The notes under the pieces were generated by a model. It was not told the DNA's origin and did no database searches. It saw nothing but the letters and a program-made list of their open reading frames with translations. A stretch of DNA of 58,332 nucleotides from a virus (Duplodnaviria > Caudoviricetes), in IMG/VR virus record IMGVR_UViG_3300037692_000546, positions 1-58,332 of that record; one strand, 5' to 3'. Position numbers and translations under genes: made by a program. Positions 9,478-46,567 of this stretch are shown piece by piece (the first letter of the stretch is position 1; each line of letters begins with the position of its first letter).

Positions 9478-9750
9478 ATGTTAGAAGCGGTAATTACCAA
9501 AAGCGTGGTATTACAGGATAAGGAAACAGGCGGGCCGGTATTGATGGGGGTAGCGGAATACGGTTCCGACGCGGTCAACTTCAAAGTCAAGTACGACTGG
9601 GAGACGCTTGACCAGGAGGGCTTTCTGCTCGATCTGCGCGACAAGTTGGCGATGGGGTTCGATCTGCCGGTCTACCGCGTCGATCTACGGGAAAAGGAAC
9701 TGCTCGACAAGATGTGCCGTTTCGCCGCGGCGATCAAGGTTAATAAATGA
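9478..9750 (+). CDS. hypothetical protein
   Basis: RBS GGGAG, between terS and terL. Confidence 0.55.
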   Translation: MLEAVITKSVVLQDKETGGPVLMGVAEYGSDAVNFKVKYDWETLDQEGFLLDLRDKLAMGFDLPVYRVDLREKELLDKMCRFAAAIKVNK

Positions 9751-23640: not shown

Positions 23641-26600
23641 ATGGCGGGTGCATTGTCGGAAAGCATGGTTGAATATGCCCTGCGGAAACAGACGGGCGAG
23701 CCGGTAAAGAACGCTTCTTTTCTTGACCGGACTAAGGATGTTGGCGTTGACGCTATGCGGGCAGTGGTCGGTGCCGGCGAATCGGCGGTTGGTTTAGTCG
23801 ATTTTCTTAACCCGGTGTCGACGTTGTTCCCCAAACTGTCACTCGGTTCATCGCTCAGCAAGATCGGTTACGACCCGAAAGCGACCCACGAAATCCTTTC
23901 CGACCTCTATTCCGATGAACGGCAGGCGGAACAGCGAGACGTTTCCGAGGCTTTTGACGAAAGCTTTTGGGGCGGCATGGGTGAAGCATTCAGTAACCCG
24001 GCAACCGTTGCCGGTACCGTGGTGCAGTCGATCCCCTCGATGCTGATCGGCCGTGGGTTGGGTGGAGTAGCCGGTAAGGCTTCAGCGCTGGTCAAGGCCA
24101 GCCCCTGGTTGCAAGCCGGATTAGGTGAAGGCTTGGTCACCGCTGGTTCAACCATGGAACAACTCCGTCAGGAAAAAGGCGAGACCGATCTTGGTGATCG
24201 CGGCTATGCGGCTTTGGCTGGCGGATTGACCGGCTTGCTTGGTGGAGTTAGTAATAAACTCGGCGGCAAATTAGGGATCGGCGATATCGATGCGCCAACC
24301 CCGCAGGAAGTGTTATTGAAAGGCGCACGGAAAAGCGGTGCCAGGCGGTTTGCCGAAGGCGCTTTGATGGAAGGCTTTGTTGAAGAACTGCCGCAGTCGA
24401 TGCAGGAACAGGTCATCATGAACGTCGCCACCGATAAGCCTTGGAGCGAAGGTTTATCGGAAGCAGCCGGCATGGGGGCTCTGTCCGGCATGGCGATGGG
24501 TGGACCAATGGGCGCCTATCAGCAAAAGTTGCAGCTTAACGAGGCTGCCCGCGAACAGGCCCACCAGGAACTGCTCAGTGAAACCGAACAGCGCCTTGCT
24601 GCTGAAGAAGTCAAACAGGAGACCGGTCTGGCCCAGGGTACAGCAAGCCAATCCTTACTGACCGAGGCCCCGACCATTGATGAACTCGCCACCGGGCAGA
24701 CGGTGCTGGCGCTGCGCGGCCAAACAGCGGAGAAGCAGCAGGAGATCGAACATCAGGCGGCGCAGAACGAAGCGTTGATCACCGAAGAAGAAATCCAGCA
24801 ACAGGAAGCCGACCCGATTCATCATCCAATTGCCCAGGCTATTGGAATAGAAACGCCACTCTTCCGCCAAGCGGTCAGTCAGATCTATACCGCGGCAAAG
24901 AATTTTGGCGAATTCTCTAAACAGCTGGTACAGCAGTTCGGCGAAGCGGTCAAGCAGTACGCCGTCAAACTATGGACTGCATATAAAGGTTCCAAACTCG
25001 CCGAACAGCGCGGGTCGTTCAGCCTTAAGCCGACTGGCGATCCAGTGGTTGATGAACATCTGACCGCCCAACGCGACAATAAAGTAAGCAAATTGATCGA
25101 CAGAGCGTTTGGCGAGATCGAGGAAGGCACGACTACCCCCGCCACCCTAACGTCGCTCAGGGAGGCGTACCAGGGCCTTCCTGAAGGCGAATTAAAGGCC
25201 GAGCTGTTAGAGATGGGCAGGCAGTATGCGGAAAGAAGTAAACAAGCCGCGCCTGCTCAAACAACCGAAGCAAAAGGTATCAACATTTCTACACGGGCGG
25301 GCGATCCATTAGGTCGAGCGCTCACTAATCCAACTTGGGGTAGTAAGAAGGATGGCAAAAACTATTTTGACGTGGAAACCGCTTACAAAGCCAACGCCAG
25401 CCGTAAGAAGGCTCCGCAACTAAACGCCGATGAAGCGTTGCACTACGACATGAACCTGATGTACGGATTGCAGGTGGAAAAGTTCAAACGGCATCCGGAG
25501 TTGGTGGAGGAAATTACTCAACGCGGGGGCGTGGATTTCCTCAAAGCCTCGGAACATACCGTTGGAGTCAAGGGCAGTCGTTGGGAAGGGAAGGGTGAGC
25601 AGAGTAATTTTATCCGGGTACTGGTGAAGGCTTACGAAGCTGCGCTGAAAGAATCGTCTGCCGCCGCAAAGGAAGCCGCGCCCGCCACCGATCCATTAAC
25701 CGAAAAGACCGCCTATCTCGACGATTTACGTCAGACGGTTAATCAGCCAAAGGAAACTGCACTTGCGGTTGAAGAGGATTACAGCAATCCCGAAGGGGCC
25801 CTGCAGACTCTCTATGAAAAGATCCGCAAAACTCCCGGGCGGCAGAGGAGCAGCGACAACTACTGGAAGCTGAAAGCCCAGCGGGAAGTTACCGCTCGCG
25901 ATGGCGAAGAGCTGATTTCCGCGGAGTCGGTACCCTTTGCCCAACGGAACGAAGAACAGAAAGGCCTTGGCCAGAAGAACCAGTGGAAGGACAAGGAGAA
26001 AAGCCCGCCGGCCGACTTCTGGCTGGACTTTGCCTTCTCGCTCAAAGAACCCCCGGCTGATAAGCAGAGCAGTCCCGCACCGTCCAAAGCCGGCCAGAAG
26101 CGCCTGTTGACCCTGCAGCAGCATTACAATGGTTTGCTGCCCACCCTGCGTAAAGCCTATCAGTCCGCTTCCCCGGAGAATCAGGCGCGGATTGCGGCGC
26201 TCGGACAGCGGCTCCAACAACAACTCGCCCCGACTGCTACTGCCCCACTGCAGGAACAAGTGGTCAGTGATGATTATGGCTCGGTTGAAGAGCTAATGGC
26301 GGCTATGGCAAAGGTGCTGCCGGAGCATAAGCGCCCACTCAACAAGGAAGAGCGAGACCACAAACAGCTCATGGAGCAGATCACTGGGGTGCATCTCAGT
26401 GAGGAGCAGCGTAAGTCACTGTTTCGGGAACGCGCCCAGCAACTCAAAGACGCCGCCAAGCAGGAAAAGGATCGCGAGAGTATCGCCGACCGCGGTAAAG
26501 CGAAAACTGTTCGGCGGATCGAATATCTACAGAACCGCCGCGAAAGCTTAACCAATGAACTCACGACGCTAGAAACTGTTAAGGCTGACTTGGGGGATAA

Positions 26601-29600
26601 TTCCGGGATTGAAATGAAACTGGATGCTGTCGCCGAAGAATTGCAAAGCGTTGAAGACGAACTGGCCAAAACCCAGGAAGAGATCTATGCCGGCCAACTC
26701 GCCCAGGAAGAACGCTGGCTTGATCAGGGCGAAGCCGCCGCGCAGGAGGAGTTTTATGACGGCTCAGAAGAAGAAGGGGATGATGCCTTCTCCGGCGTAG
26801 CCAAGCCGCGCAAACTAAAGCCGATCGATAACCTTGACGCCAATCCGAAGAAGGGGGTCGGCGGGCTCGATGCGGACGAATTGACCCCAGGCGTCGATCC
26901 CGATCGGGCGCGATTCGATTACCTGCGCCGACCGAGTGATGATCTGGAACAGGATCTGGCCGCCGATGATCCGACCCAACAAAAAGCGCTCAGCGACGCC
27001 TTTGAACAGATGATGGCTAATCCGGAACTGGCGACTGCCGCCGAAGGCGAACAGAGCCCAGCCGCCTTCATTGCCAACATTCTTGATTCACTCAAAGAAC
27101 GCTACGATATCGATCTGGTGGTGAAGGCGCTGCTGGCCAAAGAAAAGATCACCACACTGCGCAAGCTGAAGCCGGGCCTGCCGCAGTTTCTCAGCGATCT
27201 GTTGGAATACGACGAACGCCTACCGGATATCGACGAATACGATCTGACCGCCAAGGAAGAAGTTGAAGTCAATCAACTCTTCAACGAAGAGATCCGCGCA
27301 GAAGAAGCGGTGTTGAGCCAGGTCGACCCAAAGGTGCTGGAGAATGCCACCAAGGGATTGCAGACAGTAACTTCACTAGAGAAGTTGGCCAGCAACAATC
27401 CCACTTTGAAGCGGGCCCTGGCCCGGTCGCGACAGGAAGTACGCCGCCTATCGAAAGCGCAGGCCCGGGAAAAACAGTACGGCCTGTTTCGTTCAGCAAC
27501 CCAGTCTTATCTCGACGGTAAGGAGTTGCGTCAAGCTGACGTCTCTCAGGCGACCATCAACCGGTTGGCGGCACAGAACATCGTACCCTTTCTCGATGCG
27601 CTTTATACCCTCGCCAATGAAGGTTTGAAGAAGAAGGCCCATATCCTCGATATCGGCCGGGTACTCAACACCATGCGCCGCAATACCCTGGCGACTGATG
27701 ATTTCCGCTATCTCGACAAAGCGGCCAACAAGACCAGGCCAACTGATGATCCCACTCAGGGGTTGGTGGTACGGCAGTTGTTGCGCAACTTTATGGTGCA
27801 GGCGGGTTGGGACGAGAAGAGCGCCTGGAGTGATGAACAAGTTGCCGAAGCCTTGCCGGAAAATCTCGAAGCCCTGAACAACGGCCGGCCCGCTCCCGAC
27901 TCCGGCGATATCACCATGTTCATGTCCAAGGCCGCCTGGGATATTCGCAACACCGAACCACTGATCAATATCTATGGCAGTATGAACCAGGACGGCCGTA
28001 GGCACGATACTTCCAAGGTTCTCTGGGTCCGCACCAAACGGCCGAACGGTACCTGGTCGGAACCGATGCCGATGAACGAACTCGACGTTGTAGCCATGGA
28101 AGAAAAGAACCTGCCAATTCAGCGCACCGGCCGCGAACTGGCTCCAGGGGCGGTCACCCAACTCTTTGCCTGGACCCAGGACAACACCCGGCGCAATCTC
28201 TGGGGGGAAGCGATCGAGCGCAATCTGCTTCTGAACGGCGCCCCGGTCACCGAAGAGATGTTCAAAGCCAACGAAGCCCTGCATGAGCGGATCAGCGAAC
28301 TGCAAGAAAAGAATAAAACCCGTACCGCGCAGGAAGATGGTGAACTGAAAACCGCCGAACGGCAGGCGCAGACCATGGATATCGCCATTAAGGCCGGACT
28401 GTGGAACCGCCAGTTCAAAGCGGCCAAGATCCTCGACAACGATTACTTTGAAAAACTGGCCAAAGCGGCCAAATACAAACCGCTGCAGAAAACCGCCGCC
28501 GAACTGTACGAACTCTTTCAACAACATGGCGCCGATCCGGTCGCCTTCAAAAGTGTTTTGACCCAACAGTTACTTGACCATCGACAAGAAGAACTGACCG
28601 GCTTTCATCACCGAGCCTTGCAGGCGCTGGATAAGGCGTCCCGCAACGATAAAGAAGCTGTTGCCGCTGCAGCACAGAAGGAGGTTCGTACCTTTCTGCT
28701 ACAGAAGCTCGGCAAGGAGCTGGGCGGGCTTTATGAGCAGAAATACGATCAGGGGCAGGCCGTTACCCTTGACGCCGTGCAAACGCGCACTGTAGAAGCT
28801 GCCAGGGTCTATGAGCTGCAAGCACTGCGCGCCCTCGATCAAACCATCAAACAGGAACGCTCGGCCGACTATCGCAAAAAAGCCGCTACCGCCGATGACC
28901 GCAAGGTGGAGAAGGTCCTGTCTCTAGCGACGGAAAAGTACTTGCGTTCGCTGGAGGTGGAGATCAGTGATTACTTTGTGCCAAAAGCCCAACTTGATTC
29001 GTTTGAGCAAGAACTGCAAAGCCAACATCCCTATCTGACTGTCGGCCAGTTCAGTCTCAACAACCTGACGCCGATCCTCTTGAACGAGCAAAGCCTGTTT
29101 GAACAGATGCTGAACAAGGTGGCTAGTCTGTTCGGCGCCGACCTGGTACTGGTCAATGCACCAGGTTATCGTTCGCGGTATGTTGGCAAAGCCACCGATG
29201 GCCGCTCAAAAATCATCCTCAATGCCCGAGTTGGCAAGGTCGATCTGGCCCGGGTCTTTGCCCACGAAGTCTTTCATCATGTCTTGAACAAGCTGACCAA
29301 AGGCGAATTCCTGGCCTTCAGAAACTCGTTGCAGCACATGATCGCTAACCCCGGTCTGTACCGCGGTGAACTGGCCAACCGCTTTATCCAAGACACCTAT
29401 CTGTCCGGGATGAACGAAGACGGCCCAAACCTGCGGAGTATCACCCTTTTGAACCAGGCGATTGCCGCCACCGCGGTCAAGGAAGGCATCTCTCGCGAAC
29501 AGGCTGAGCAGGAAGTCATGAGCGAACTGTTCGCTGACGTCGCCACCAGTAAGGCGTTCTACGAGCATCTGGCTAAAACCCTACCCGGGCGGACCTTAGC

Positions 29601-32600
29601 CGCCAAACTGATTCTGCGTCTGCTGCCGCAATTAACCACGTTCTTCGAGTTTTCGTCCAAGGCCAATGGCTTCAGTTTCGAAAAGGATCTGTTGCTACAG
29701 AAATCAGATATGAATTCGATCTATTCCTTGTTTGCTGAAACGCTCGGCTTCTCGCTGGAGCCAGGCCGCGACGTGCGGTATGCCGGCGAGCAGTTTCAGA
29801 CTGCAGTGCAAAGCGGCCAAGCCTTAAGCGGCAAGATCTGGAAAGCGATCTTCCCCACCGGTTCGATCTCGCGCAAACAGTTCATGACCAGTATCGAGAA
29901 GTTCGCCAAGCTGGTGTTCGATAAATTTAAAGAGATCCGGCCCAAATTCATTCACGCCGACCTCTGGGCCAGTCCGGAAGAAACCAAGCTGGCGTACAAG
30001 GCGGCGCATGCCGGCACCTATCTGAAAGATCAGTTAAGCCGCAAGCTGGAAAAGTATCGCCGCACCTTTCACGGCTGGACTCCGGAACAACTGGAAAAGC
30101 TCAACGATGACTTCGCTCGCGGCGTTACCGCCGAGCGTTCAACCGATCTAAAAGTCTTGACGGCTTACGATAAACATATGACCGCCTTGCTGCGGGCGCG
30201 GGCGGACGGCAAACTGACCGAATGGCAGTTCAACAAGAAGTCGAAACAGGCCTATGAAAAGACCATGGTTCGCACCCAGGACCCGATCGATGTCGGTACG
30301 CCTGTCCGCCCGAACGCCAGCGGTATCGCCAAGGCCAAGGCGCTTGGTTACAGCGACGAGGTGATCGAAGTCTTTCAGCAGTATAAAGAGCAGGCCGACA
30401 TCATGTACACCGCTCTACGGAAGATCTATCCCGATTTGCCGCACAACGCGACTCATTACGGGCAGTCGATCCGCTGGTTCAGTAAGAACGGTATTGTCCT
30501 CGACGACAGTTATGACTGGGCGGTCAATCCGGAATATTCCAAACTCGAAGGCAACAAGCGCTTCTTAAAGAACCGCGATATGGAAAGAACGACCAGGGAG
30601 ATCGCCGAGGAATACCAGATTGAGGCGCAGACCCTCAATCCCCACGACCTCTTTCTCCGCTACATGCACGACGCCCAACGGTTGATCACCTTACATGAAG
30701 TGTTGCAGGAAGGCATGAGCAAGAAGCTGATCAAGGGCTTCCATGGCGAAAACCGCGAGACGAAAGCGGCCAAGGAAGGTTATGTGCCGGTCAACGATAA
30801 CGTCTTTAAGATACTGGCCAAGCTCGATCTGCCGGAAACCTTTCGCATCCAACTGGCCGGTGGCGATTATCTGCAACAGCAGAATCGCGAAGCGGTTTAT
30901 GGAACCCACGAAGAAGCTAGCCAAGCTCTGAACCAGGGCTTACAGGAAGATCCTGCTACTTTTAGTATGGCCACCATCGAAACCGGCAAGGGCCTCTCAC
31001 AGCAGCATACCGCGCAATGGCGGGTGTTGCTTGTTACCCCCCAGGGCGATCGCTTGCCGCATCAGCAGACCTTTCAGACCGAACGACAGGCCAATGAGTT
31101 TGCAACTCAGAAGCAACAGGAAACTGGTATTCCGCATTATGCAGAACGCGAACTGGCGACCGCCGATACGGCGCAGATTGGTCAGTTCTATATGCGTAAA
31201 GATCTCGCCAACATGCTCAATATCTTGCTGGGTAAGGATCATATTCGCAACGGCACGTTCATGGGTATTAGCGGTAACCAGGTGATGAATGTCAAAAATA
31301 TGCAGACCTCGGTGGAATTTGCTGTGTCGATGTTTCACCTGATGACCATCGGCCAGGAAATGGTCTCGTCCGAAGCGGGACACGTCCTGCAGCGCTACAA
31401 AGGTTCCGAACGGGTCAAGCGTTTCATCAACGCCTTCCGCCCAGGCAAAACCTTTGGCAAGGCCAATCAGCTGGTGACCTTGTTGACCGCGGTCATCGCC
31501 GATGAAAGCCTGGCGACCGATCCGGCGGTAATCCAAAAAGCCAACGAACTGCTCGGCACCAGCAGCGTCGATCTGCTCGACCTGGTCAAGACCTACTACG
31601 ACGGGGTTGGCGGCATGCTCGGCCAGGACGAAAGCCTGCGCTCCTCGGTGCACGGTTATGGCAAGATGCGCTACACCAGTAAAGAGGACAAGCTGAATGT
31701 GGTTAACGGCGAAGTGCAGTTCGAACGCGGTATCGTCTCCGATCTGTCGTTAAAGGCGATGATGGACTCGGGCGGTGAAGTGTTCGACAACGAAATGGCC
31801 AAATCTGGCAAGAAGTGGAAGGCGGTCAGCAAGACGACCCTGTTTGGTTTGATGCAGGCGCCATCGGCTTTCCTCATGGAATACGGCATTCCCCGGGTAA
31901 AAATGGCGATGTGGGCCCAAGAATACACTTTGGAGCTGGATCGGCAGAAAGACGCAATTGCGGCCGGCAGCAAGACCAAGGATGAAATCGCCCGCGACGT
32001 GATGTTCTTCATCGAAGATCGGTTTGGCGAAGTGAACTGGAAAAACATGTGGATGAAGCCGACCGCCAAGACCGCGCTGCAGTTCCTCTTCCGCTCCTTC
32101 ACCTGGATGGCCGGTTCCTGGGTCGCCCTCGGTAAGGCCGGCTACGATCTCGGCAAACTCGGCTGGTTCACCATCAAGGGCGAACAATATCAACTGACGA
32201 CTAAAGGATATTGGGGGGTAACAGCCTTGATGTCACACATGCTGACCGTCGGTCTGGTCTCGACCGCCTATCTGGCCATTGGGGCAGCGGGCGGTGAAGA
32301 CGAAGTGCCGGATGATGAAGAAACCCCTCTTCTGACCAAGATGCTCTTTCCGCGGGTTTCGCGGGACGACCCGCAAGGTCGGATTACCGTGCCGTCTTAT
32401 ATCACTGAGCTGTACAAAATCATGCGCCATCTCGGGTTGATCGGGGATAATCAGGAACTATCAAAACTGGTTACTGGCAGGTTTAACTCCTTGGTGGGTA
32501 AAACGATTGAAGTGATCAATGGTGAAGATTGGCGAGGGGTATCGATTACTGCGCATGATGATGGCTTTGTCACTCGGGCCGCCAAACAAGCCGCGCACAT

Positions 32601-33156
32601 TGCTCTGGTTATGCCAATTTCGCTATCCACCGTAGCGCGGTCGATACAGAAGAAAGGCTTTAGCGGTGGAGCGGCAATTGGCCTGGCAGGGTTTACCGAT
32701 GCCCCTGCTTCGGCGAAACGTTCCGATGCCGCCAACAAGGCCTTTGAAATCAGAAGGCAAGAATACAAAGGCCGGCGGATCGATCCGGAGGACATGGAAG
32801 AAAGCGAAACCATCCGCCGAGCGGTTTATCAATACGCCCAGGGCGATCCTTCCGCCGTTAAGGAACTGCGGGCCGCCGGCAAACTCTCGACCAGGCAGTT
32901 TCAAAACGCCTTGCAGAAACAGCCAAGGATTAACGGCAAGCGCAACCCACGCTACAAGGACCCCTTATCGTCTGCGCTCAAAGGCCTGACCATCACCGGG
33001 GCAATGGAGACCTGGCAGTACATGACCGATACGGAAAAAAGGAAACACAAGACGACGCTGCGCAAGAAGTTCTACAACGTTCAGCGTCGCAACGATCGTT
33101 CGCCGCAGGAAAAAGACCTTATTCGGAAGAAGATGAAGGAGCTGCAGATCTTATGA
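23641..33156 (+). CDS. giant ejection / large polyvalent protein (NADAR-like, HExxH metallopeptidase-like and LPD38-like regions)
   Basis: 3171 aa, no Cys seen; Gly/Ala-rich N-terminus; NADAR-like ~25276-25640; HEVFH at 29263-29277; E..NG.DW.G..I near the C-terminus. Confidence 0.75.
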   Translation: MAGALSESMVEYALRKQTGEPVKNASFLDRTKDVGVDAMRAVVGAGESAVGLVDFLNPVSTLFPKLSLGSSLSKIGYDPKATHEILSDLYSDERQAEQRDVSEAFDESFWGGMGEAFSNPATVAGTVVQSIPSMLIGRGLGGVAGKASALVKASPWLQAGLGEGLVTAGSTMEQLRQEKGETDLGDRGYAALAGGLTGLLGGVSNKLGGKLGIGDIDAPTPQEVLLKGARKSGARRFAEGALMEGFVEELPQSMQEQVIMNVATDKPWSEGLSEAAGMGALSGMAMGGPMGAYQQKLQLNEAAREQAHQELLSETEQRLAAEEVKQETGLAQGTASQSLLTEAPTIDELATGQTVLALRGQTAEKQQEIEHQAAQNEALITEEEIQQQEADPIHHPIAQAIGIETPLFRQAVSQIYTAAKNFGEFSKQLVQQFGEAVKQYAVKLWTAYKGSKLAEQRGSFSLKPTGDPVVDEHLTAQRDNKVSKLIDRAFGEIEEGTTTPATLTSLREAYQGLPEGELKAELLEMGRQYAERSKQAAPAQTTEAKGINISTRAGDPLGRALTNPTWGSKKDGKNYFDVETAYKANASRKKAPQLNADEALHYDMNLMYGLQVEKFKRHPELVEEITQRGGVDFLKASEHTVGVKGSRWEGKGEQSNFIRVLVKAYEAALKESSAAAKEAAPATDPLTEKTAYLDDLRQTVNQPKETALAVEEDYSNPEGALQTLYEKIRKTPGRQRSSDNYWKLKAQREVTARDGEELISAESVPFAQRNEEQKGLGQKNQWKDKEKSPPADFWLDFAFSLKEPPADKQSSPAPSKAGQKRLLTLQQHYNGLLPTLRKAYQSASPENQARIAALGQRLQQQLAPTATAPLQEQVVSDDYGSVEELMAAMAKVLPEHKRPLNKEERDHKQLMEQITGVHLSEEQRKSLFRERAQQLKDAAKQEKDRESIADRGKAKTVRRIEYLQNRRESLTNELTTLETVKADLGDNSGIEMKLDAVAEELQSVEDELAKTQEEIYAGQLAQEERWLDQGEAAAQEEFYDGSEEEGDDAFSGVAKPRKLKPIDNLDANPKKGVGGLDADELTPGVDPDRARFDYLRRPSDDLEQDLAADDPTQQKALSDAFEQMMANPELATAAEGEQSPAAFIANILDSLKERYDIDLVVKALLAKEKITTLRKLKPGLPQFLSDLLEYDERLPDIDEYDLTAKEEVEVNQLFNEEIRAEEAVLSQVDPKVLENATKGLQTVTSLEKLASNNPTLKRALARSRQEVRRLSKAQAREKQYGLFRSATQSYLDGKELRQADVSQATINRLAAQNIVPFLDALYTLANEGLKKKAHILDIGRVLNTMRRNTLATDDFRYLDKAANKTRPTDDPTQGLVVRQLLRNFMVQAGWDEKSAWSDEQVAEALPENLEALNNGRPAPDSGDITMFMSKAAWDIRNTEPLINIYGSMNQDGRRHDTSKVLWVRTKRPNGTWSEPMPMNELDVVAMEEKNLPIQRTGRELAPGAVTQLFAWTQDNTRRNLWGEAIERNLLLNGAPVTEEMFKANEALHERISELQEKNKTRTAQEDGELKTAERQAQTMDIAIKAGLWNRQFKAAKILDNDYFEKLAKAAKYKPLQKTAAELYELFQQHGADPVAFKSVLTQQLLDHRQEELTGFHHRALQALDKASRNDKEAVAAAAQKEVRTFLLQKLGKELGGLYEQKYDQGQAVTLDAVQTRTVEAARVYELQALRALDQTIKQERSADYRKKAATADDRKVEKVLSLATEKYLRSLEVEISDYFVPKAQLDSFEQELQSQHPYLTVGQFSLNNLTPILLNEQSLFEQMLNKVASLFGADLVLVNAPGYRSRYVGKATDGRSKIILNARVGKVDLARVFAHEVFHHVLNKLTKGEFLAFRNSLQHMIANPGLYRGELANRFIQDTYLSGMNEDGPNLRSITLLNQAIAATAVKEGISREQAEQEVMSELFADVATSKAFYEHLAKTLPGRTLAAKLILRLLPQLTTFFEFSSKANGFSFEKDLLLQKSDMNSIYSLFAETLGFSLEPGRDVRYAGEQFQTAVQSGQALSGKIWKAIFPTGSISRKQFMTSIEKFAKLVFDKFKEIRPKFIHADLWASPEETKLAYKAAHAGTYLKDQLSRKLEKYRRTFHGWTPEQLEKLNDDFARGVTAERSTDLKVLTAYDKHMTALLRARADGKLTEWQFNKKSKQAYEKTMVRTQDPIDVGTPVRPNASGIAKAKALGYSDEVIEVFQQYKEQADIMYTALRKIYPDLPHNATHYGQSIRWFSKNGIVLDDSYDWAVNPEYSKLEGNKRFLKNRDMERTTREIAEEYQIEAQTLNPHDLFLRYMHDAQRLITLHEVLQEGMSKKLIKGFHGENRETKAAKEGYVPVNDNVFKILAKLDLPETFRIQLAGGDYLQQQNREAVYGTHEEASQALNQGLQEDPATFSMATIETGKGLSQQHTAQWRVLLVTPQGDRLPHQQTFQTERQANEFATQKQQETGIPHYAERELATADTAQIGQFYMRKDLANMLNILLGKDHIRNGTFMGISGNQVMNVKNMQTSVEFAVSMFHLMTIGQEMVSSEAGHVLQRYKGSERVKRFINAFRPGKTFGKANQLVTLLTAVIADESLATDPAVIQKANELLGTSSVDLLDLVKTYYDGVGGMLGQDESLRSSVHGYGKMRYTSKEDKLNVVNGEVQFERGIVSDLSLKAMMDSGGEVFDNEMAKSGKKWKAVSKTTLFGLMQAPSAFLMEYGIPRVKMAMWAQEYTLELDRQKDAIAAGSKTKDEIARDVMFFIEDRFGEVNWKNMWMKPTAKTALQFLFRSFTWMAGSWVALGKAGYDLGKLGWFTIKGEQYQLTTKGYWGVTALMSHMLTVGLVSTAYLAIGAAGGEDEVPDDEETPLLTKMLFPRVSRDDPQGRITVPSYITELYKIMRHLGLIGDNQELSKLVTGRFNSLVGKTIEVINGEDWRGVSITAHDDGFVTRAAKQAAHIALVMPISLSTVARSIQKKGFSGGAAIGLAGFTDAPASAKRSDAANKAFEIRRQEYKGRRIDPEDMEESETIRRAVYQYAQGDPSAVKELRAAGKLSTRQFQNALQKQPRINGKRNPRYKDPLSSALKGLTITGAMETWQYMTDTEKRKHKTTLRKKFYNVQRRNDRSPQEKDLIRKKMKELQIL

Positions 33157-40626: not shown

Positions 40627-41172
40627 ATGGTTGAGTTACAGCAGGGAGACGTATTCGCTGTTTACTCCGGTTCGTGGTTGGCGCGATCGATCAATGCCGT
40701 ATCGGGCTGGAATGCTTCAGACAGCGAAAGCGAATACAACCATGCCGGGATAATCACTAACGCCAACGGTCAGACATTCGAGGCCCTGCGTCGTTTGGAT
40801 TTTTACCACCTGGACGCCTATCAGAAGCGGAAGGTTATTGTCGCCCGCCCAAAGGCCTCACAGGTGGCCAAGCAAACGGCATTGCTCAGACTGATCAGCC
40901 TCCACCGGGGGCAGATCTATCCGGCCTGGCGGATTCCGTTGCATGTTTACCCTCCACTGGCCAGGAAGATTTCCCTTAATGGCAAGTACCTGGTTTGCTC
41001 GGAACTGGTGGCAAAGTACGAATGGCTGACAGGGAACAGACATCTGTCATACACCGGAGCAACCCCGGACATGCTGGTGGACGAGTGGCGGCAATGGCGG
41101 GATTTCGAAATCATTTACGAAGGAGAAATAATGGCGAATCAGGCACCTTGCGCCCCGTCTCTTGCCGGCTAA
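40627..41172 (+). CDS. permuted papain-like (YiiX/YebB-like NlpC/P60) enzyme
   Basis: LQQGDV..., YNHAGI, FEA, CSELVA (His before Cys = permuted); start at ATG 40627 after GGAGG. Confidence 0.75.
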   Translation: MVELQQGDVFAVYSGSWLARSINAVSGWNASDSESEYNHAGIITNANGQTFEALRRLDFYHLDAYQKRKVIVARPKASQVAKQTALLRLISLHRGQIYPAWRIPLHVYPPLARKISLNGKYLVCSELVAKYEWLTGNRHLSYTGATPDMLVDEWRQWRDFEIIYEGEIMANQAPCAPSLAG

Positions 41173-41210
41173 AAGGGGCGGCACCGTAGTAAGGCTGGTT
41201 CACTGAACAT

Positions 41211-41251
41211 AAAAAAACCCCGCAATCCAATTAAGGAGAGCGGGGTTTTTT
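41211..41251. terminator. bidirectional intrinsic terminator between convergent late and early blocks
   Basis: AAAAAAACCCCGC...GCGGGGTTTTTT. Confidence 0.8.
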
Positions 41252-41252
41252 A

Positions 41253-41600
41253 TTATTTTTCCCAACCGATTACTGGACCGTCGGGGTTTTCTTTAATCTG
41301 TGATTCTACGCCGATCTGGTTTAATCCGGAACTCAAGGCTTGAAACAGTAAATGGGCAAAGACATCAACGAACTTCTCGTTGGTGCGCAGATCGTACTCA
41401 TTCATGACGAACAGAATCCAGTGCACCACTTCGTGGATATAGGACTGCTCGGTGGTCTGGTCCGGGGTGGCGCCGGCGTCCATCACGATCTGTTGTAAAT
41501 GATAGATCGACTCACCAATCATCTTGTGATCGCGGATCATGTTGTCGTTGTAAACAGTTTCGATAGATAGGCCGGCGAGGTTTATTTTAACAGGGATCAT
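41253..41600 (-). CDS. small HExxH zinc metallopeptidase-like protein
   Basis: G.......I.......Q...SYIHEVVH.I...NEKFVD. Confidence 0.65.
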   Translation of the reverse strand: MIPVKINLAGLSIETVYNDNMIRDHKMIGESIYHLQQIVMDAGATPDQTTEQSYIHEVVHWILFVMNEYDLRTNEKFVDVFAHLLFQALSSGLNQIGVESQIKENPDGPVIGWEK

Positions 41601-41634
41601 GCAGTCTCCAGGGGTGAAAAATCCCACTACCCTA

Positions 41635-41781
41635 TTAGGGAGCAACGGGCTTTTTCGTTAAAGATTTGAATTCCTTGCGTTCTTTGAACTCGGCTTTTTT
41701 GCCGGGGTTCCAGGTTTGTACAGGGCGCATGAAGCCGCAAACCCGACTGTATGTTTCAACCTTTCCTTCACATTTCTTCAA
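41635..41781 (-). CDS. stand-alone NrdD C-terminal glycyl-radical domain peptide (48 aa)
   Basis: C...VETYSRVCGFMRPVQTWNPGKKAEFKER; probable TTG start at 41781 after AAAGGAAG. Confidence 0.8.
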   Translation of the reverse strand: MKKCEGKVETYSRVCGFMRPVQTWNPGKKAEFKERKEFKSLTKKPVAP

Positions 41782-41965
41782 TATTATTACTTCCTTTCCG
41801 TTTATCCCACCAATGCCCCATGTACCACATTTCGTCCTGCGTTGCGCCAAACGATCCGATAGTTGTTAATCCGTTGTGCCGAAGCCATGCTACTTGGTCA
41901 ATGTAATTTCCGGTGCAGTCCGGACAGTGGCACGGAACTTTTAGCGGCGCGTTTTTGTTTGCCAT
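41768..41965 (-). CDS. hypothetical protein
   Basis: CHCPDC; RBS GGGAG. Confidence 0.45.
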   Translation of the reverse strand: MANKNAPLKVPCHCPDCTGNYIDQVAWLRHNGLTTIGSFGATQDEMWYMGHWWDKRKGSNNIEEM

Positions 41966-41977
41966 TTATACCACTCC

Positions 41978-42136
41978 CTAGTCCTCTTTACACCTGGGGT
42001 CGTGCTTGCTTCCAACCAAACTGCGCAGGTCTGCCCGAGCATCATCTGCCGAATACGTCCCGTTCAGAAGATCTACAAAGTAAGAGTCTCGATACGGCCA
42101 GCAACTTACCAGATCGTCCTCGGTGAATTCTTTCAT
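41978..42136 (-). CDS. hypothetical protein (52 aa)
   Basis: Manual translation MKEFTEDDLVSCW...; RBS GGAGG. Confidence 0.5.
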   Translation of the reverse strand: MKEFTEDDLVSCWPYRDSYFVDLLNGTYSADDARADLRSLVGSKHDPRCKED

Positions 42137-42499
42137 TTATTCCTCCCATTCCGGGTCAATCGCCGCCACGGCGTCCCGAAGATCCCGAAGCGTGCAATCG
42201 TCTCCATCGCAAAGATGAAGATTCTCCATCAGAGTGTTTCGGGCCGCGTACAACAATTTCCCAAGTTTTGGTGATATATCTTTAGCCCGTTGCGCCAATT
42301 GCACAGCGTCTCTGACCGTCGCGGGTATCTCGCCGTCACTTGTGAAACAATCCTGGTAATCTGCATCTTTTAGAATTTCTCGGATAGCAGAATAAACACT
42401 TGCCTGCCCGGCATCGAACGCGATTTTGCAGTAACCAAGAGCCGAAAGCGGCGTACCTTTTGACTGCATTTCCTCTGCAACTTCATCCCAATTTTTCAT
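42137..42499 (-). CDS. hypothetical phage protein
   Basis: Operonic, ATGA coupling. Confidence 0.55.
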   Translation of the reverse strand: MKNWDEVAEEMQSKGTPLSALGYCKIAFDAGQASVYSAIREILKDADYQDCFTSDGEIPATVRDAVQLAQRAKDISPKLGKLLYAARNTLMENLHLCDGDDCTLRDLRDAVAAIDPEWEE

Positions 42500-42690
42500 T
42501 TATCCTCACCCTTCATAGCTATCTGCACGATACTACCTCCTGGCCCTGCGTACTCTGCCGCCTGTTCTCTGGTTGCAAAAACTAGTATACAGCCTGTGCA
42601 TCCATCAGCCATGCCTGAAATTTGCAGGGTTTTCTTTAGCCCCATGATTTCGATTTCGACTTCTTTTTTCAATGACATTGCAGCCCACAT
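42496..42690 (-). CDS. hypothetical phage protein
   Basis: RBS GGAG directly beside the cassette-array boundary. Confidence 0.55.
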   Translation of the reverse strand: MWAAMSLKKEVEIEIMGLKKTLQISGMADGCTGCILVFATREQAAEYAGPGGSIVQIAMKGEDK

Positions 42691-42700
42691 TTCATACTCC

Positions 42701-42750
42701 GCTTAAGTATTGGCTTATATAGGGGGGGGTCTGTATAAGCCTTGTTATAT
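42701..42750 (+). other. candidate attI-like/primary recombination site at the 5' end of the cassette array
   Basis: Core GTTATAT (42744-42750) preceded by the inverted repeat GGCTTATATAG...CTGTATAAGCC. Confidence 0.45.
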
Positions 42751-42960
42751 TTCTTCGCCGTCCTCGTCGGTTTGCACAAATTCGATCCTGTGCAGGCATC
42801 GAACGAAAAAGGTTTTACCGCAATCCGGGTTTGGACATTTCAGTTCGCTGTCGTCGCAATCTCCGGTGTAGACCTTGCCTACGGTGTACTCTCCGTGCCA
42901 GGTTTGTTCATCGTCAAACTCATAACCACAATGGTTGCATGTTGGATTTTTTGTTTTCAT
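42745..42960 (-). CDS. cassette 1 ORF: zinc-ribbon protein
   Basis: CNHC...CPNPDC; RBS GGAGG; TAA stop inside the core site. Confidence 0.65.
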   Translation of the reverse strand: MKTKNPTCNHCGYEFDDEQTWHGEYTVGKVYTGDCDDSELKCPNPDCGKTFFVRCLHRIEFVQTDEDGEEI

Positions 42961-42974
42961 TCTAACCTCCAGAA

Positions 42975-43039
42975 ATATAACCAATCGCTGCAAGCGGACT
43001 CGGCAAACTGCGCCGAGCCCTTGACCTTAGTCGTTCTAT
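42975..43039 (+). repeat. attC site 1 (65 bp)
   Basis: ATATAAC-CAATC-GCTGCAAGCGGACTCGGC...GCCGAGCCCTTGACC-TTAGTC-GTTCTAT. Confidence 0.8.
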
Positions 43040-43233
43040 TGTTTCTTGGTAGCGAACAGACCGCCCGTCTTTTTCATCCAGGTTTTGGTAAGGCCCATTC
43101 CGCCTTCGTCGCTGATCCCGTAGAGCAGGTCGCTTGCAGCTTCGAGAGCTTTTGCGGCCAGGTAGATCGGCATAAATAAGATGTCCAGTAAAATAAAGAG
43201 CAGTAGTGCCATCAACCAGATGATTTTTCCCAT
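43036..43233 (-). CDS. cassette 2 ORF: small membrane protein
   Basis: N-terminal TM IIWLMALLLFILLDILFMPIYL; RBS GGAGG. Confidence 0.6.
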   Translation of the reverse strand: MGKIIWLMALLLFILLDILFMPIYLAAKALEAASDLLYGISDEGGMGLTKTWMKKTGGLFATKKQ

Positions 43234-43248
43234 TTTCGCGCCTCCGCA

Positions 43249-43351
43249 ATAGAACCCATCAGTGAAGACGACGCGCAACTCAGTTCGCGTTTGGCCCAGG
43301 GTCTCTGTGGTACGCGGTCATTCTGCTACGCGTCTTACCTTATCGTTAGCG
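43249..43351 (+). repeat. attC site 2 (103 bp)
   Basis: ATAGAAC-CCATC-AGTGAAGACGACGCG...CGCGTCTTACC-TTATC-GTTAGCG. Confidence 0.8.
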
Positions 43352-43621
43352 AAAATATAAATGTGGCAGCGTCCACCGTATTATTTGCAGCCGCCCGTTT
43401 CTGTACCACCGAACGCTGCGCCAGGAGTTCCGCGCCTTGCACACTGGCAGCACCAACCCGGTTTTACCTTCCCGACAGTATGAGCATGTGCAGTTCGGTT
43501 CATGGTCTTCGCGCAGTATCGAAGGCCGTGAAATCCTCAGCCACTTTCTGCAGGTGCCCGCTAACAAAGCGTTTGAGTCGGACGATTCAGCGGCAGTGGT
43601 TCTCGGTTGACTTTCGTGCAT
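43346..43621 (-). CDS. cassette 3 ORF; RBS and ATG lie inside attC3
   Basis: GGAGGTGAAAC-ATG within the attC loop; CTCSYC; TAA stop in the core site. Confidence 0.55.
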   Translation of the reverse strand: MHESQPRTTAAESSDSNALLAGTCRKWLRISRPSILREDHEPNCTCSYCREGKTGLVLPVCKARNSWRSVRWYRNGRLQIIRWTLPHLYFR

Positions 43622-43663
43622 GTTTCACCTCCAGAGCGTCGCCGCTCAGCTTAGTCGTTATGT
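43559..43663 (+). repeat. attC site 3 (105 bp)
   Basis: CGCTAAC-AAAGC-GTTTGAGTCGGACG...CGTCGCCGCTCAGC-TTAGTC-GTTATGT. Confidence 0.85.
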
Positions 43664-43665
43664 CT

Positions 43666-43812
43666 CTAAAACCATCGATACGTTGCTGGCATTTTTTGCC
43701 ACTCGAATATCAACACCTGACCGTTGTCGTGTGGGTCGGATAGCACTCGATATGGAGTAATCGCCAGCCTCCGAACAAATAGATACCTAAACAACCTCTT
43801 TATTTTTTTCAT
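43666..43812 (-). CDS. cassette 4 ORF (48 aa)
   Basis: MKKIKRLFRYLF...; RBS GGAG. Confidence 0.5.
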   Translation of the reverse strand: MKKIKRLFRYLFVRRLAITPYRVLSDPHDNGQVLIFEWQKMPATYRWF

Positions 43813-43831
43813 CTCTCGTCTCCGATCCGCG

Positions 43832-43916
43832 CCATAACAATTGGGTGAACCGGAGCGCTGACGCGCTCCACTCCGATCCACCAGACTACCGCGCCCGGTT
43901 ACCCAAGGCGTTGTGT
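43832..43916 (+). repeat. attC site 4 (85 bp)
   Basis: CCATAAC-AATTG-GGTGAACCGGAGCGC...GCGCCCGGTTACC-CAAGGC-GTTGTGT. Confidence 0.85.
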
Positions 43917-43928
43917 GCCGAACAGCCT

Positions 43929-44099
43929 TCACCCCTCTGCCCAGTACGACAGCTCTGAATCTACCGCCTCTTTCGGGGTCATCCCGTCGTTGAATTCGTC
44001 GGTTGCGGCTTCGGCTAGTTCTCCGGCCAAATCTTGGTCTACGGCACCAGATTCAACGAAGTGTTTCGCATATTCGGCATTCCATTCTTTCCTGTCCAT
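43929..44099 (-). CDS. cassette 5 ORF: small acidic protein (56 aa)
   Basis: MDRKEWNAEY...P.EAVDSELSYW; RBS GGAGGAG. Confidence 0.6.
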   Translation of the reverse strand: MDRKEWNAEYAKHFVESGAVDQDLAGELAEAATDEFNDGMTPKEAVDSELSYWAEG

Positions 44100-44126
44100 T
44101 CTCTCCTCCATAAAGTGGTGGTTAGC

Positions 44127-44185
44127 GCACAACCCAGCGGTCAAGCGGACGGGGAAACCGTCCGCCGCTTACCTTGTCGTTATCT
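44127..44185 (+). repeat. attC site 5 (59 bp)
   Basis: GCACAAC-CCAGC-GGTCAAGCGGACGG-GGAAA-CCGTCCGCCGCTTACC-TTGTC-GTTATCT. Confidence 0.9.
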
Positions 44186-44422
44186 GGCAGGTCGCCAGTG
44201 TGTAGGTTTACATTCCACCGAAAAACCGCACGTCCACCATGTGTTACTGTAGGCCAGTGTTCCATTGGGTGCGTATGGCGTTTTCAAAAGGATCTTTTGT
44301 CTCCCATCTCTCGGCGCTGTTTCGATCGGTTGCCAGCTAACCCGGCGCTCAACGGCGGACTTGCTACGCAAGTCGCGAATTTCGACTCCTGTGCAGTCCT
44401 TGAACATTTCGCTGTTTTCCAT
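44180..44422 (-). CDS. cassette 6 ORF: DUF551-like phage protein starting inside attC6
   Basis: WQPIETAPRDG...PTHW.P; N-terminal KSAVERRVS is encoded by the attC arm. Confidence 0.65.
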   Translation of the reverse strand: MENSEMFKDCTGVEIRDLRSKSAVERRVSWQPIETAPRDGRQKILLKTPYAPNGTLAYSNTWWTCGFSVECKPTHWRPAR

Positions 44423-44439
44423 TTCGTCCTCCTGTTAAT
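44335..44439 (+). repeat. attC site 6, right core missing
   Basis: AGCTAAC-CCGGC-GCTCAACGGCGGAC...GTCCTCCTGTTAAT; no GTT at the expected spacing. Confidence 0.55.
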
Positions 44440-44579
44440 TTGCCCCACAATCCATTCCCAACCGTCCGCCCTGCCGTATCCCTTCGCGTTGTGCCGTTCG
44501 TGCCTCCTGACCGGCAAGGCGTTCCGTCATTACCAGGCTGCTTTAAGAAAACAGCCCGGTAAGGAGAAACTTGACAAAG

Positions 44580-45029
44580 CTACTTTTCCCCTTCTTGGCG
44601 GGCGAGGATTTCGGCGGCCAAATAATTGATTGCTCCACGCAAATCGTTTATGGCAGCCTCGGTTGGCAGGCGCTGTGATTCCTGAGCTTTCTTCATCGCC
44701 TGGCCGATTGTATATCCGCTGCCAACCATGCGTCGGATCTGCAGGATCGGTTGCTGCAAAAAAGGCTTGTCAGTAGCATGGCGTTCTTTTCCTTTGCCGA
44801 ATTGTGCTTGGTTAAGGGCGTCAATAAGGACTTCGAAAAGCGGGTCGTAGCCGGCAGCGACGGTCACGTTCCGGTTGTGTAAGCCAGATTCTTCCGGTAG
44901 GGGGATTTCTTCAACCGTCTTCACCCCGACGTCGCTAGGCGATGAACAAGCGCACGGTTTGAGGCTGCCCAGGGGATAAGTCGCCTTGCGGGTGGATTTG
45001 TCTTCTTCAAGCCAGCTGTTTGTAGTCAT
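44580..45029 (-). CDS. conserved phage helical protein (possibly MazG-like fold)
   Basis: QA..GKGKERHA...PF..QP...GQA.KK..E...AINY. Confidence 0.55.
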   Translation of the reverse strand: MTTNSWLEEDKSTRKATYPLGSLKPCACSSPSDVGVKTVEEIPLPEESGLHNRNVTVAAGYDPLFEVLIDALNQAQFGKGKERHATDKPFLQQPILQIRRMVGSGYTIGQAMKKAQESQRLPTEAAINDLRGAINYLAAEILARQEGEK

Positions 45030-45083
45030 GGGAATATCCTTTGTGAAAGAGGGCAGGCCGAAACCCGCCCTGAATTATTGTTA

Positions 45084-45407
45084 TTACTGGAAGTGGGTCT
45101 GGCGTTCGTGTTCGGGAATTAAGCCATTTTCGACCACTTCACCGGTATCTTCCCGGTAGAGGGTTTTAGTATCTATCGCCCAATCATAACTCCAGGAGCA
45201 GGCGACTTCGCGCAATTCCTGCCCGGAATCGATTGCTTCGGAAAGTTCCGTGGCCCGGGTATCGAGTTCCTTAATGGCGGAGTTAAGGGCCTTACGTTGT
45301 TCAGCGAGGCGGGCGGCGTTGACCAGACAGGTGGCGAGTTCCCGCCCATAGGTTTCGATTTCGTGGTCAGTGAGAGTAATAGGCAGGGTACGGTAGTCTT
45401 TCTTCAT
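45084..45407 (-). CDS. hypothetical phage protein
   Basis: R.LP..LT..E...R.DTGEVV; start at ATG 45407 after AGGAG. Confidence 0.6.
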   Translation of the reverse strand: MKKDYRTLPITLTDHEIETYGRELATCLVNAARLAEQRKALNSAIKELDTRATELSEAIDSGQELREVACSWSYDWAIDTKTLYREDTGEVVENGLIPEHERQTHFQ

Positions 45408-45421
45408 AACATTCTCCTGGG

Positions 45422-45610
45422 TTATTTTGAAAAGGCGCCGATAAGCGCAGTTACTAAAATGAGAACCACAATAATCAGTGGAATCCAGACCGGCGCCAAG
45501 ACCCATAACCATGGCCACGAAATATATCCGGTCAATTTAAGGCCGATAAAAAGGACAGTGAGAAGTCCGGTAAAACCAATACCGCTGCTACTTAATGTTG
45601 ACCTTGCCAT
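45422..45610 (-). CDS. small two-TM phage membrane protein
   Basis: GIGF.GLLT..FI.LKL.G.I.W.W.WVLAP.WIP. Confidence 0.7.
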   Translation of the reverse strand: MARSTLSSSGIGFTGLLTVLFIGLKLTGYISWPWLWVLAPVWIPLIIVVLILVTALIGAFSK

Positions 45611-45625
45611 ATAGTGCTCCTTGAA

Positions 45626-46567
45626 TTAAAAGATGCAGGGCTCGCGATCTTCGGGCAACGATTTACCCTCTTGTTGCAATAAGGCCTTGTTTTGGCCGCA
45701 AATATTTCGTACCGGGCAGAAGCGTAAACAGCGGGTACGGCCGGTCATGCGTTTGACAATCTGGTGGGTGGCGTAAGACAGTTTTTTGTCGGTGAAAGCG
45801 GCCAATGCTTCATGCTCTGTGTCGAAGCAGGCGGTGGCACGTTGGGCGCCCTGTTTGAAAATAGCCCAATCCTTGATATCACTCCACATCTCTGTGTCGG
45901 AGCAGGGGAAGTGTTCCGTCAGTTCAGTGTCAGTTAAGGTCTCTGCGGTCAGCAGGCGCTGGACGCGCTCGGTGATATAGGCGAGCTGGCGGGCTTCGTT
46001 CCACAGCGGCAGATCGATCTGTACACTAGCGGATGAAGGGTAATTTTTTTTATAGGCTTCGGCTGGTTTGAAGTCAAAAATCAGAGCAATGACGGTCAGT
46101 TTCTTGACGGGAAAATCATTCTGCCTCAGCAGGTAGGCGTAGATGTTTTGGCCATTCTCCCATTCGATATAGTCACCCTTGATAATTTTATAAACCTTGG
46201 TGCTTTTGTAATCCCGCACTTCCTGGCGAGCAGCGGAATAGAGGTCGAGCTTGCCGGAAATGGTTTTGCCCAGCAGGTCCAGATAAAGACGCTTTTCGAC
46301 GAACGAGCCGTCGCCGTTATCTTGGGCGTGAAACGCTTCTTCAAGGACGCTGTGCGCAATCGAACCCAGAAACCGCCAGAACATATCGGACACGTCTTCG
46401 ATCACCAACTGATCCGGATAGCGCCGCTTGAGGATGATCATTTGGGTAGGAGCGGTCAGGGTGGAGGCGGACTCGTCAAAATCTCGTTCGTCTTCGTCAG
46501 TATAGCGATCTTTCAGAATCGCCGTAACGAGTTCAGGCGCCCAATTGAATTTGTTTGTGTACTGCAT
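45626..46567 (-). CDS. PD-(D/E)xK exonuclease (Cas4/RecB-like)
   Basis: G...H, E.RL, ISG..DL, DYKST, Q..Y, C-terminal RC..FCPV..IC. Confidence 0.8.
   Translation of the reverse strand: MQYTNKFNWAPELVTAILKDRYTDEDERDFDESASTLTAPTQMIILKRRYPDQLVIEDVSDMFWRFLGSIAHSVLEEAFHAQDNGDGSFVEKRLYLDLLGKTISGKLDLYSAARQEVRDYKSTKVYKIIKGDYIEWENGQNIYAYLLRQNDFPVKKLTVIALIFDFKPAEAYKKNYPSSASVQIDLPLWNEARQLAYITERVQRLLTAETLTDTELTEHFPCSDTEMWSDIKDWAIFKQGAQRATACFDTEHEALAAFTDKKLSYATHQIVKRMTGRTRCLRFCPVRNICGQNKALLQQEGKSLPEDREPCIF

Follow-up and report, generated by a model that had tools for sequence, protein, structure and literature searches.

The viral contig IMGVR_UViG_3300037692_000546 of IMG/VR, a linear molecule of 58,332 bp that was analysed at its whole length and is called the window in the following, carries a genuine integron-type cassette array. 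Five complete and one truncated attC site follow each other within 1.7 kb, delimiting five complete cassettes and a truncated one, and no recombinase is encoded in the 58 kb. The array thereby qualifies as a cluster of attC sites lacking integron-integrase (CALIN), which in the IntegronFinder papers is reportedly defined as two or more close attC sites with no intI gene nearby. Taken as a whole, the locus is probably a CALIN within a phage replication operon, whose cassettes hold accessory cargo and are moved in trans by an integron integrase of the host. An initial annotation of this DNA had proposed much the same, and its integron-type array and lack of an integrase both stand, the array also showing signs of turnover at G^TT. 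It had overlooked that the genes run antisense to the canonical cassette orientation; its general idea proved to be already published, and the genome that it called near-complete is only 81% complete according to CheckV.

Read along the + strand, the layout corresponds to an integron platform, in which an anchor hairpin (a0) is followed by G^TT and by repeats of TT-core, gene and R''-L''-loop-L'-G. The anchor (42697..42744) comprises a conserved stem-loop with a G8 loop (42712-41), after which come TT and, at 42744, the G belonging to the first G^TT; the G of each further G^TT is located at 43033, 43345, 43657, 43910 and 44179. Cassette 1 (42745..43033, + strand, as for all cassettes) contains the open reading frame (ORF) ORF1 on the minus strand (42745-42960, 71 amino acids, Cys-rich) and attC a1 (42975-43039, 65 nt), and its cores GTTATATTTCT/AGAAATATAAC agree at 11/11 positions. 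Cassette 2 (43034..43345, cores 9/9) combines ORF2 (43036-43233, minus, 65 amino acids, hydrophobic N-terminus) with a2 (43249-43351, 103 nt), cassette 3 (43346..43657) ORF3 (43346-43621, minus, 91 amino acids) with a3 (43559-43663, 105 nt), and cassette 4 (43658..43910) ORF4 (43666-43812, minus, 48 amino acids) with a4 (43832-43916, 85 nt). In cassette 5 (43911..44179), ORF5 (43929-44099, minus, 56 amino acids), which displays a weak match to phrog_12309, is joined to a5 (44127-44185, 59 nt). With each site taken to span both of its 7-nt boxes, R'' and R', the five lengths given in the initial annotation as 65, 103, 105, 85 and 59 nt are thus correct, as are the coordinates.

The sixth cassette (44180..44425) contains ORF6 (44180-44422, minus, 80 amino acids) and a partial attC, a6, extending from 44335 to about 44425. 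That this site is truncated, as first annotated, is borne out by a related contig (locus L059) with an intact attC of this type, to the left arm and loop of which the remnant corresponds. Retained are R'', L'' and the loop, the latter including the start of ORF6 and a 24-residue leader, whereas the L'/R' arm is gone and the sequence has been replaced right after the ORF6 start codon. Complete homologues of a6 are present in two related contigs, G001 and G002. A candidate for the missing right arm near 44463-44492 was rejected, since no L' complement was found there.

All five complete sites carry the inverted core of attC, with AAC at the end of R'' and GTT at the start of R', the consensus being RYYYAAC for the former box and GTTRRRY for the latter. 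A hairpin descriptor restricted to a first spacer of 5 nt and a second of 5 or 6 nt detects 5/5 sites on the + strand (a2 with a descriptor score of 8) and also recovers the plasmid attCs of aadA1, aadB, qacF, OXA-101, cmlA5, aacA4 and arr-2; the loose form of the descriptor, with 123 hits in the window, is unspecific and served only as a guide. The sites share the R''/L''/L'/R' geometry of class 1 integron attCs (aadA1 on R100; cmlA5, aacA4 and arr-2 on IncC and Pseudomonas plasmids, loci L032-L036), including an R''-side spacer of 5 nt, an R'-side spacer of 5-6 nt, one bulged base in the R''-side arm and the G^TT crossover. The extrahelical base varies between C, G and T among the phage sites, and two of these, C and G, are also seen in plasmid attCs. 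Site lengths range from 57 to 127 nt on class 1 plasmids and from 59 to 105 nt in the phage array, and models built from either group detect the sites of the other.

Such models were built, starting from plasmid attCs, because Rfam holds no attC family; scanning 42000-45500 against Rfam at E<=10 produced nothing beyond three weak matches without relevance (mir-8, RMST_5 and CrcZ). The sources were the attCs of five class 1 integron plasmids (five loci, 99,846 nt). Model R1 (aadA1, aadB and qacF) was seeded from three ungapped 60-nt attCs and then refined, R2 additionally contained the OXA-101 and cmlA5 attCs and was searched on both strands with filters off, and R3 was derived from 13 phage sites, namely the R2 hits at E<=0.3, a2 not being among them. 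MAFFT alignments were not used for the models, since they misplaced right arms in sites with a 5-nt second spacer or differing loops. Hit counts stem from cmsearch with filters off; a first R2 search of whole records, which was less sensitive, was not counted. The E-values are rough because of a shortened calibration, and the R3 alignment (A7) was fitted to the R2 structure, but the gaps in bit score are large nonetheless.

R1 alone is too narrow, with a5, a1 and a4 as its top three hits at E-values of 0.11 to 1.3. With R2, the best four of 16 hits in the window (E<=10) are a4 (23.9 bits, E 2e-4), a1 (21.0), a5 (18.8) and a3 (15.1), all on the + strand, followed by a next-best hit of 10.1 bits. 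As a held-out yardstick, R2 assigns 30.9 bits to the aacA4 attC but fails to find the genuine attCs of arr-2 and qnrVC4 at E<=5, so that a4, a1, a5 and a3 are ranked above two bona fide held-out sites. Over the window and four related loci (99,925 nt), 13/13 R2 hits at E<=0.3 fall into arrays, on the strand antisense to the genes. R3 scores a1, a5, a4 and a3 at 71.1, 52.1, 45.1 and 39.6 bits and recovers a2 with 21.7 bits (E 3.6e-4); hits elsewhere in the window do not exceed 13.2. In the reverse direction, the R3 hits on the plasmids are headed by ten sites, which are precisely the known attCs and lie on the gene-sense strand: aadA1 (68.1), qacF (63.8), aadB (54.3), OXA-101 (48.9), cmlA5 (44.8, twice), aacA4 (38.6), arr-2 (25.9), a remnant of the dfrA14 site located behind a group II intron (18.9) and qnrVC4 (16.5), after which the score drops to 11.3. 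The covariance-model check called for in the initial annotation is thus passed in both directions with home-built models, and the array sites are structurally members of the attC family.

On the control plasmid L035, a group II intron reverse transcriptase (7036-8385) lies within the dfrA14 attC, the remnant of which R3 detects at 8895-8981. The occurrence of group II introns within attCs is a known association.

The initial annotation had quoted six core pairs as the footprint of circular cassettes, all of which are present in the window. When the 11 nt after the left G are compared with the reverse-complemented 11 nt that run up to the end of R'' in that cassette, the six cassettes give an identity sum of 54/66, the best of all 720 pairings; 146 of 100,000 random permutations reach 54, where about 1/720 is expected for the identity permutation. 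For 15 cassettes from five contigs, own cores agree at 9.07/11 positions on average versus 6.02/11 in 210 non-own pairs, and 0/100,000 permutations reached the observed sum. Cassette ends at G^TT in combination with complementarity of own cores far beyond chance are the footprint of a circular intermediate.

That the hairpins arose by chance, act only as RNA elements such as terminators or processing hairpins, or result from assembly artefacts at repeats, and have no relation to integrons, is strongly disfavoured and hardly credible. Intergenic hairpins are common in phage operons, the loose descriptor is rich in hits, the lack of an attC family in Rfam meant that no curated model could be applied, and unitigs do break at the repeats. 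However, the models succeed both ways, the permutation tests are strongly significant, and the array architecture recurs in independent assemblies of different metagenomes. Moreover, no T-run follows the hairpins on the coding strand, and the number of terminator-like sites (6) is that expected (6.3).

Comparison with related phages reveals that the gene order is not fixed and that cassettes are gained, lost and replaced at G^TT; an identical, fixed order had been named beforehand as refuting the array. The sole locally close contig in IMG/VR is G001 (locus L037), which is 87-88% identical to the window at 42129-42748 and 44416-44533. Between these conserved flanks, 1.6 kb of L037 is wholly different. 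The left break coincides with the GTTAT of the first G^TT, homology ending at 42748; from there L037 continues with G|TTATCGC, an HNH gene, GCGATAAC, an attC (21.1 bits with R2) and G|TTATAC, and the cores of this HNH cassette agree at 8/8 positions.

A search with a 23-mer of a1 found two further viral contigs, G002 (42.6 kb) with at least seven cassettes and G003 (57.4 kb) with at least three. Both share with the window the attCs alone, 58-61 nt at 96-98% identity, and none of the genes; G003 also holds an attC 93% identical to a5. The large terminase subunit (TerL) of G003 is 69% identical to that of the window, and G001 and G002 are without a TerL match, so that the attC types cross phage lineages. 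G001, which is 100% complete, carries a second array, and further cassettes are found in loci L054 and L056. Cargo in these relatives includes PAPS_reduct, DUF4406, a metallophosphatase fragment and HNH. Hence these attC types accompany other genes in other phages, and cassette content differs between relatives at the same anchor. A collapsed attC was observed in G002 (reverse complement of L055, ~5680-5705), where AAGGGTTA is followed by TAGGATCTCAAGC and GTTAAAT; it keeps the start of R'' and the L'/R' end, the centre being deleted.

Sediment metagenome runs were examined as assembled contigs and unitigs. In these metagenomes the attC sequences of the window are over-represented. In run X1 the depth rises from about 11 to 79 over a1 and to about 25 over a4 (25.1) and a6, and a 50-nt unitig at 42978-43027 has a depth of 67.5, compared with a phage depth of about 11. 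Numerous contigs join or depart at R'' or R' boxes, continuing into other reverse-oriented gene starts or R' boxes. The depth spikes on a1, a4 and a6 and the contig ends at the boxes show that these attCs occur in other contexts. In run X2, a cassette of the ORF6 type follows an attC of the L037 type, the two meeting at 44179/44180. The source metagenome is polymorphic for cassette 1: a variant diverging by about 10% occurs at low depth in runs X1 and X2, and X5 contains the exact form. No perfect-match contig covers 42774-42977 in X1, a hole that proves nothing, and the contig joints 43035>44160 and 43035>44346, which have fewer than 30 letters on one side, were left uninterpreted.

Turnover of this kind might alternatively be caused by general homologous recombination between near-identical repeats during co-infection, as at mosaic boundaries, the footprint of the integron integrase (IntI) being an ancient relic; this is considered unlikely. 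Contigs that are otherwise unrelated carry attCs with 96-98% identity over 58-61 nt, a stretch that may suffice for phage recombinases, and the window encodes an exonuclease and RusA. In addition, the small genes of L037 are split by a 23-nt motif of the 5' untranslated region (5'UTR), and it is exactly at this motif that the right end of the window array joins the backbone. Exchange within attC bodies, however, creates no complementarity of 9-11 nt between own cores and would not set junctions at G^TT beside a non-homologous anchor. Furthermore, the IntI-specific geometry of bulge and spacers is retained in attCs of the a1, a5, a6 and HNH types alike, suggesting that selection still maintains it.

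In agreement with the initial annotation, PF00589 and TIGR02249 give no hit to a tyrosine recombinase in the contig, and PF00589 gives none in the complete G001 or in G003. The tyrosine recombinase of G002 was rejected as a phage IntI, as it is Xer-like, reaching 73.6 bits on TIGR02249 versus a cut-off of 265, and lies far from the array. With no IntI-grade hit in the window or in G001-G003, none of the arrays forms a complete integron comprising intI, attI and the promoter Pc. The close fit of the sites to the canonical attC model makes a classical IntI the economical choice of catalyst, and its supply in trans by the host would be the most economical explanation for recombination.

At the position where attI stands in a canonical integron, the array is headed by a0. 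This module of about 50 nt, a hairpin with a loop of G6-10 followed by TTG|TT, recurs at four array ends in three contigs with differing flanking genes, i.e. in the window (42697-42748), in both arrays of G001 and in G002 (L037 ~4346-4400; L059, reverse complement, ~2750-2790; L042 1337-1392). The array of G003 begins instead after another hairpin, followed by a T-run. By analogy with integrons, a0 may receive cassettes as a counterpart of attI.

The conservation of a0 could also indicate that a non-classical recombinase, encoded in the missing 19% of the phage, in a satellite or by an unrecognised family, acts on the sites and on a0, which would then be the primary site of a phage-specific platform. 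Four array ends in three contigs share this anchor despite differing flanking genes, attI is unlike the hairpin a0, the genes are systematically antisense, the attC types are absent from reference bacterial genomes, and the window contig is incomplete. Such an enzyme is nevertheless quite improbable: G001 is 100% complete and possesses two arrays with no tyrosine recombinase, the integrase of G002 is an ordinary Xer-like phage integrase located far from the array, and the aadA1 attC scores 68 bits on the phage-derived model.

The orientation of the genes follows from the bulged base. The coding strand of the aadA1 attC of R100 reads TCTAAC-aattc-GTT[C]AAGC...GCTT-AAC-tcaagc-GTTAGAT, and a5 on the + strand displays the same layout (GCACAAC-ccagc-GGT[C]AAGC...GCTT-ACC-ttgtc-GTTATCT). 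As the bulged base of aadA1 is on the R'' side and the + strand of the window is alike, the top strand of the attCs must be the + strand, to which the phage genes run antisense. On the control plasmids, 10/10 attCs are on the gene-sense strand.

Several observations weigh against cassette movement by a host integrase. In 17/18 cassettes from five contigs, including 6/6 in the window, the longer ORF is encoded antisense to the top strand of the attC, so that the arrangement of canonical cassettes, with the ORF in the same sense as the attC top strand, is not found; the canonical cassette pool looks unlike these reverse-sense phage cassettes. The R' boxes (e.g. GTTCTAT, GTTATGT and GTTGTGT) fit GTTRRRY only loosely, and a2 was missed by R2 in the window search with filters off. 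No IntI was found in the four contigs and no host was identified, and with the contig 81% complete a recombinase could lie in the missing part. A 19-mer of a1, the commonest attC, gave only six chance hits with no extended similarity in 185,579 species genomes, and blastn of the region returned one unrelated 135-nt hit among GenBank phages and nothing in plasmids; a metagenome contig matching the 19-mer (L053) was doubtful and was not used. No bacterial integron with these attCs is known; the commonest of them is absent from reference genomes, plasmids and GenBank phages. The repeated attCs break Logan unitigs at 42773 and 42998, and the cassette order of the contig may therefore be one of several population variants. 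Finally, homologous recombination between 60-nt, 98% identical attCs could reassort cassettes on its own.

If the array is nonetheless served by a host-supplied integron integrase, this enzyme would insert, excise and reshuffle cassettes in trans during infection, with the minus strand, which is the coding strand, presumably acting as the recombinogenic bottom strand. Because the genes lie on the minus strand, each cassette presents, along the direction of transcription, its attC as bottom-strand sequence and then the ribosome-binding site (RBS) and the ORF, the stop codon of which coincides with the crossover point or lies close to it. The cassettes seem to be without promoters of their own and are most likely transcribed within the polycistronic message of the phage. 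Promoter-like sites in 41000-46000 (3 observed versus 4.1 expected) are consistent with the promoterless ORFs of canonical cassettes. The cargo would consist of accessory phage genes, the turnover of which may be favourable to the phage: small orphan proteins in the window, HNH, PAPS-reductase and DUF4406 proteins in its relatives.

Some attCs extend into the genes that follow them. The a3 site encloses the RBS and start codon of ORF3 together with its first 20 codons. Long attCs of the a3 and a6 types hold the RBS and the start codon in the loop, and the N-terminus is translated through L'' and R''; such sites are found in the window (43559-43663, a3; 44335-44425, a6), in L055 (reverse complement, 3177-3309) and in L059 (reverse complement, ~2985-3120). 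The leader ME(N/K)SEMFKDCTGVEIRDLRSKS of the a6 type is fused to different protein bodies in the window and in G001. ORF6 is 88% identical to the G001 leader over residues 1-24 and 82% identical to L056 over residues 25-79. The latter, C-terminal domain (44180-44350), with the motif W-x-P-I-E-T-A-P, is widespread and was observed in at least 80 loci in viral contigs; it has no Pfam or PHROG match at the thresholds used.

These features allow a more far-reaching proposal, which is put forward tentatively: phages might keep a reverse-sense cassette pool of their own, in which the attC lies upstream of the gene, some loops provide RBS, start codon and leader, a0 serves as attI, and a recombinase acting in trans exchanges cassettes across unrelated lineages. 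The origin of cassettes is an old open question. As ORF1 has a counterpart among attC-less phage genes, with homology at the 3' end, such a pool might show how cassettes are made. This homologue (L054, 240-470; 74% amino acid identity) is an ordinary backbone gene located by RusA-region genes and has no adjacent attC; its 3' end GTTAAATTTCTTC is homologous to the left core of cassette 1. Judged from these sequences, either the attC was lost there or the gene represents a pre-cassette form.

The promoter-proximal side of the array ends differently. Upstream of ORF6, at the junction to the backbone, a 5'UTR/RBS motif, TTGTGGGGCAAATTAACAGGAGG, is located at 44428..44450 on the minus strand, with one copy in the window where 0 are expected by chance. 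In L037, about five copies or variants of this 23-nt motif (~2725, 2965, 3225, 3520, 3744), which are not attCs, separate small early genes. The motif looks like a second, homology-based repeat system that would swap genes at start codons. Since a6 is cut just past the start of ORF6 and joined to this motif, the promoter-side end of the array was apparently made by a different kind of recombination.

Integrons are usually treated as bacterial devices. Sedentary chromosomal integrons, e.g. those with Vibrio repeats, are characterized by homogeneous, lineage-specific attCs on many small orphan genes; among the sites analysed, they are represented by the qnrVC4 attC of L034 alone. The phage arrays resemble them in their near-identical attC families on many small orphan genes, which implies a local cassette pool; unlike in these integrons, the pool is apparently carried by phages, no chromosome with these attCs being found among reference genomes. 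Compared with class 1 integrons, the array lacks intI, attI1 and Pc, its genes are antisense, its cargo is composed of orphan phage genes rather than resistance genes, and its core complementarity reaches 9-11 nt. Loot et al. (bioRxiv 10.1101/2022.09.11.507474) describe insertion of cassettes by IntI outside integrons at genomic attG sites (5'-GWT-3'). As in those insertions, there is no integron platform, GTT lies in ordinary DNA and expression is possible only via a resident promoter. However, whereas the insertions that they describe are mostly isolated cassettes in bacterial genomes, whole arrays are present here in phages, at a recurrent, conserved hairpin-plus-GTT anchor.

It was not until 2023 that attC clusters in phages were described, chiefly as a potential path by which bacterial cassettes might move. 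Qi, Rajabal, Ghaly, Tetu and Gillings (2023, Front Microbiol, PMC9892861) screened 10,705 NCBI phage genomes and found 17 CALINs, requiring a minimum of two attC sites per CALIN; five of six tested attCs, which came from virulent phages, recombined with attI1 under IntI1. Their text calls the arrays typical and describes one that starts beside a terminator-like hairpin bearing GTTRRRY motifs. Integrase-less phage attC clusters have thus been published with functional assays (PMC9892861), and the general idea is not new; a literature search found no other publication on phage-borne attC arrays. The window array is similar in having two or more attCs and no intI. Their CALINs include those of virulent and uncharacterised phages, whereas the present one, with six cassettes, is from an uncultivated sediment viral contig and, unlike the CALINs as described in the text of that paper, belongs to a set with antisense genes in 17/18 cassettes. 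Identical attC types across phages with unrelated terminases, a recurrent anchor hairpin and start codons in loops likewise go beyond that text. Neither the reverse-sense arrangement nor a recurrent anchor or attC-embedded starts were found in the main-text passages compared. Four features look new: antisense genes, an anchor hairpin at the attI position, start codons in attC loops, and reassortment of cassettes among unrelated phages.

Phage-type cargo, attCs shared across unrelated terminases and reversed gene orientation together suggest that phages are not mere vehicles of bacterial cassettes and use integron chemistry with a pool of their own. If a host IntI does service the arrays during infection, this would represent a new form of phage exploitation of a host enzyme and would allow fast variation of early genes, possibly of those for host takeover or counter-defence. 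The start codons in attC loops and the attC-less homologue of a cassette gene, in turn, bear on the origin of cassettes.

The array is embedded, as the initial annotation had recognized, in a phage operon. On the minus strand from 41 to 58 kb, a block of replication and recombination genes encodes an exonuclease (phrog_2139), RusA, a primase, a DnaB-like helicase and a replication initiator. Within it, the six small ORFs at 42745-44422 (48 to 91 amino acids) are each preceded by a strong Shine-Dalgarno sequence; none of them belongs to a Pfam family, and PHROG matched ORF5 only, weakly. No relatives of the exonuclease gene or of ORF1 were found in IMG/VR. For a neighbouring 149-residue protein, 31 loci were retrieved, which share the domain alone and show no synteny; R2 run with default filters gave spurious or weak hits there, and these loci were dropped. 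The structural genes occupy the + strand from about 9 to 41 kb and include TerL (9747-11240), with EBPR podovirus 1 as the closest isolate relative (48%), a head-tail adaptor and the major head protein. A single ORF of 3171 amino acids (23641-33156, + strand) can be observed inside this structural block.

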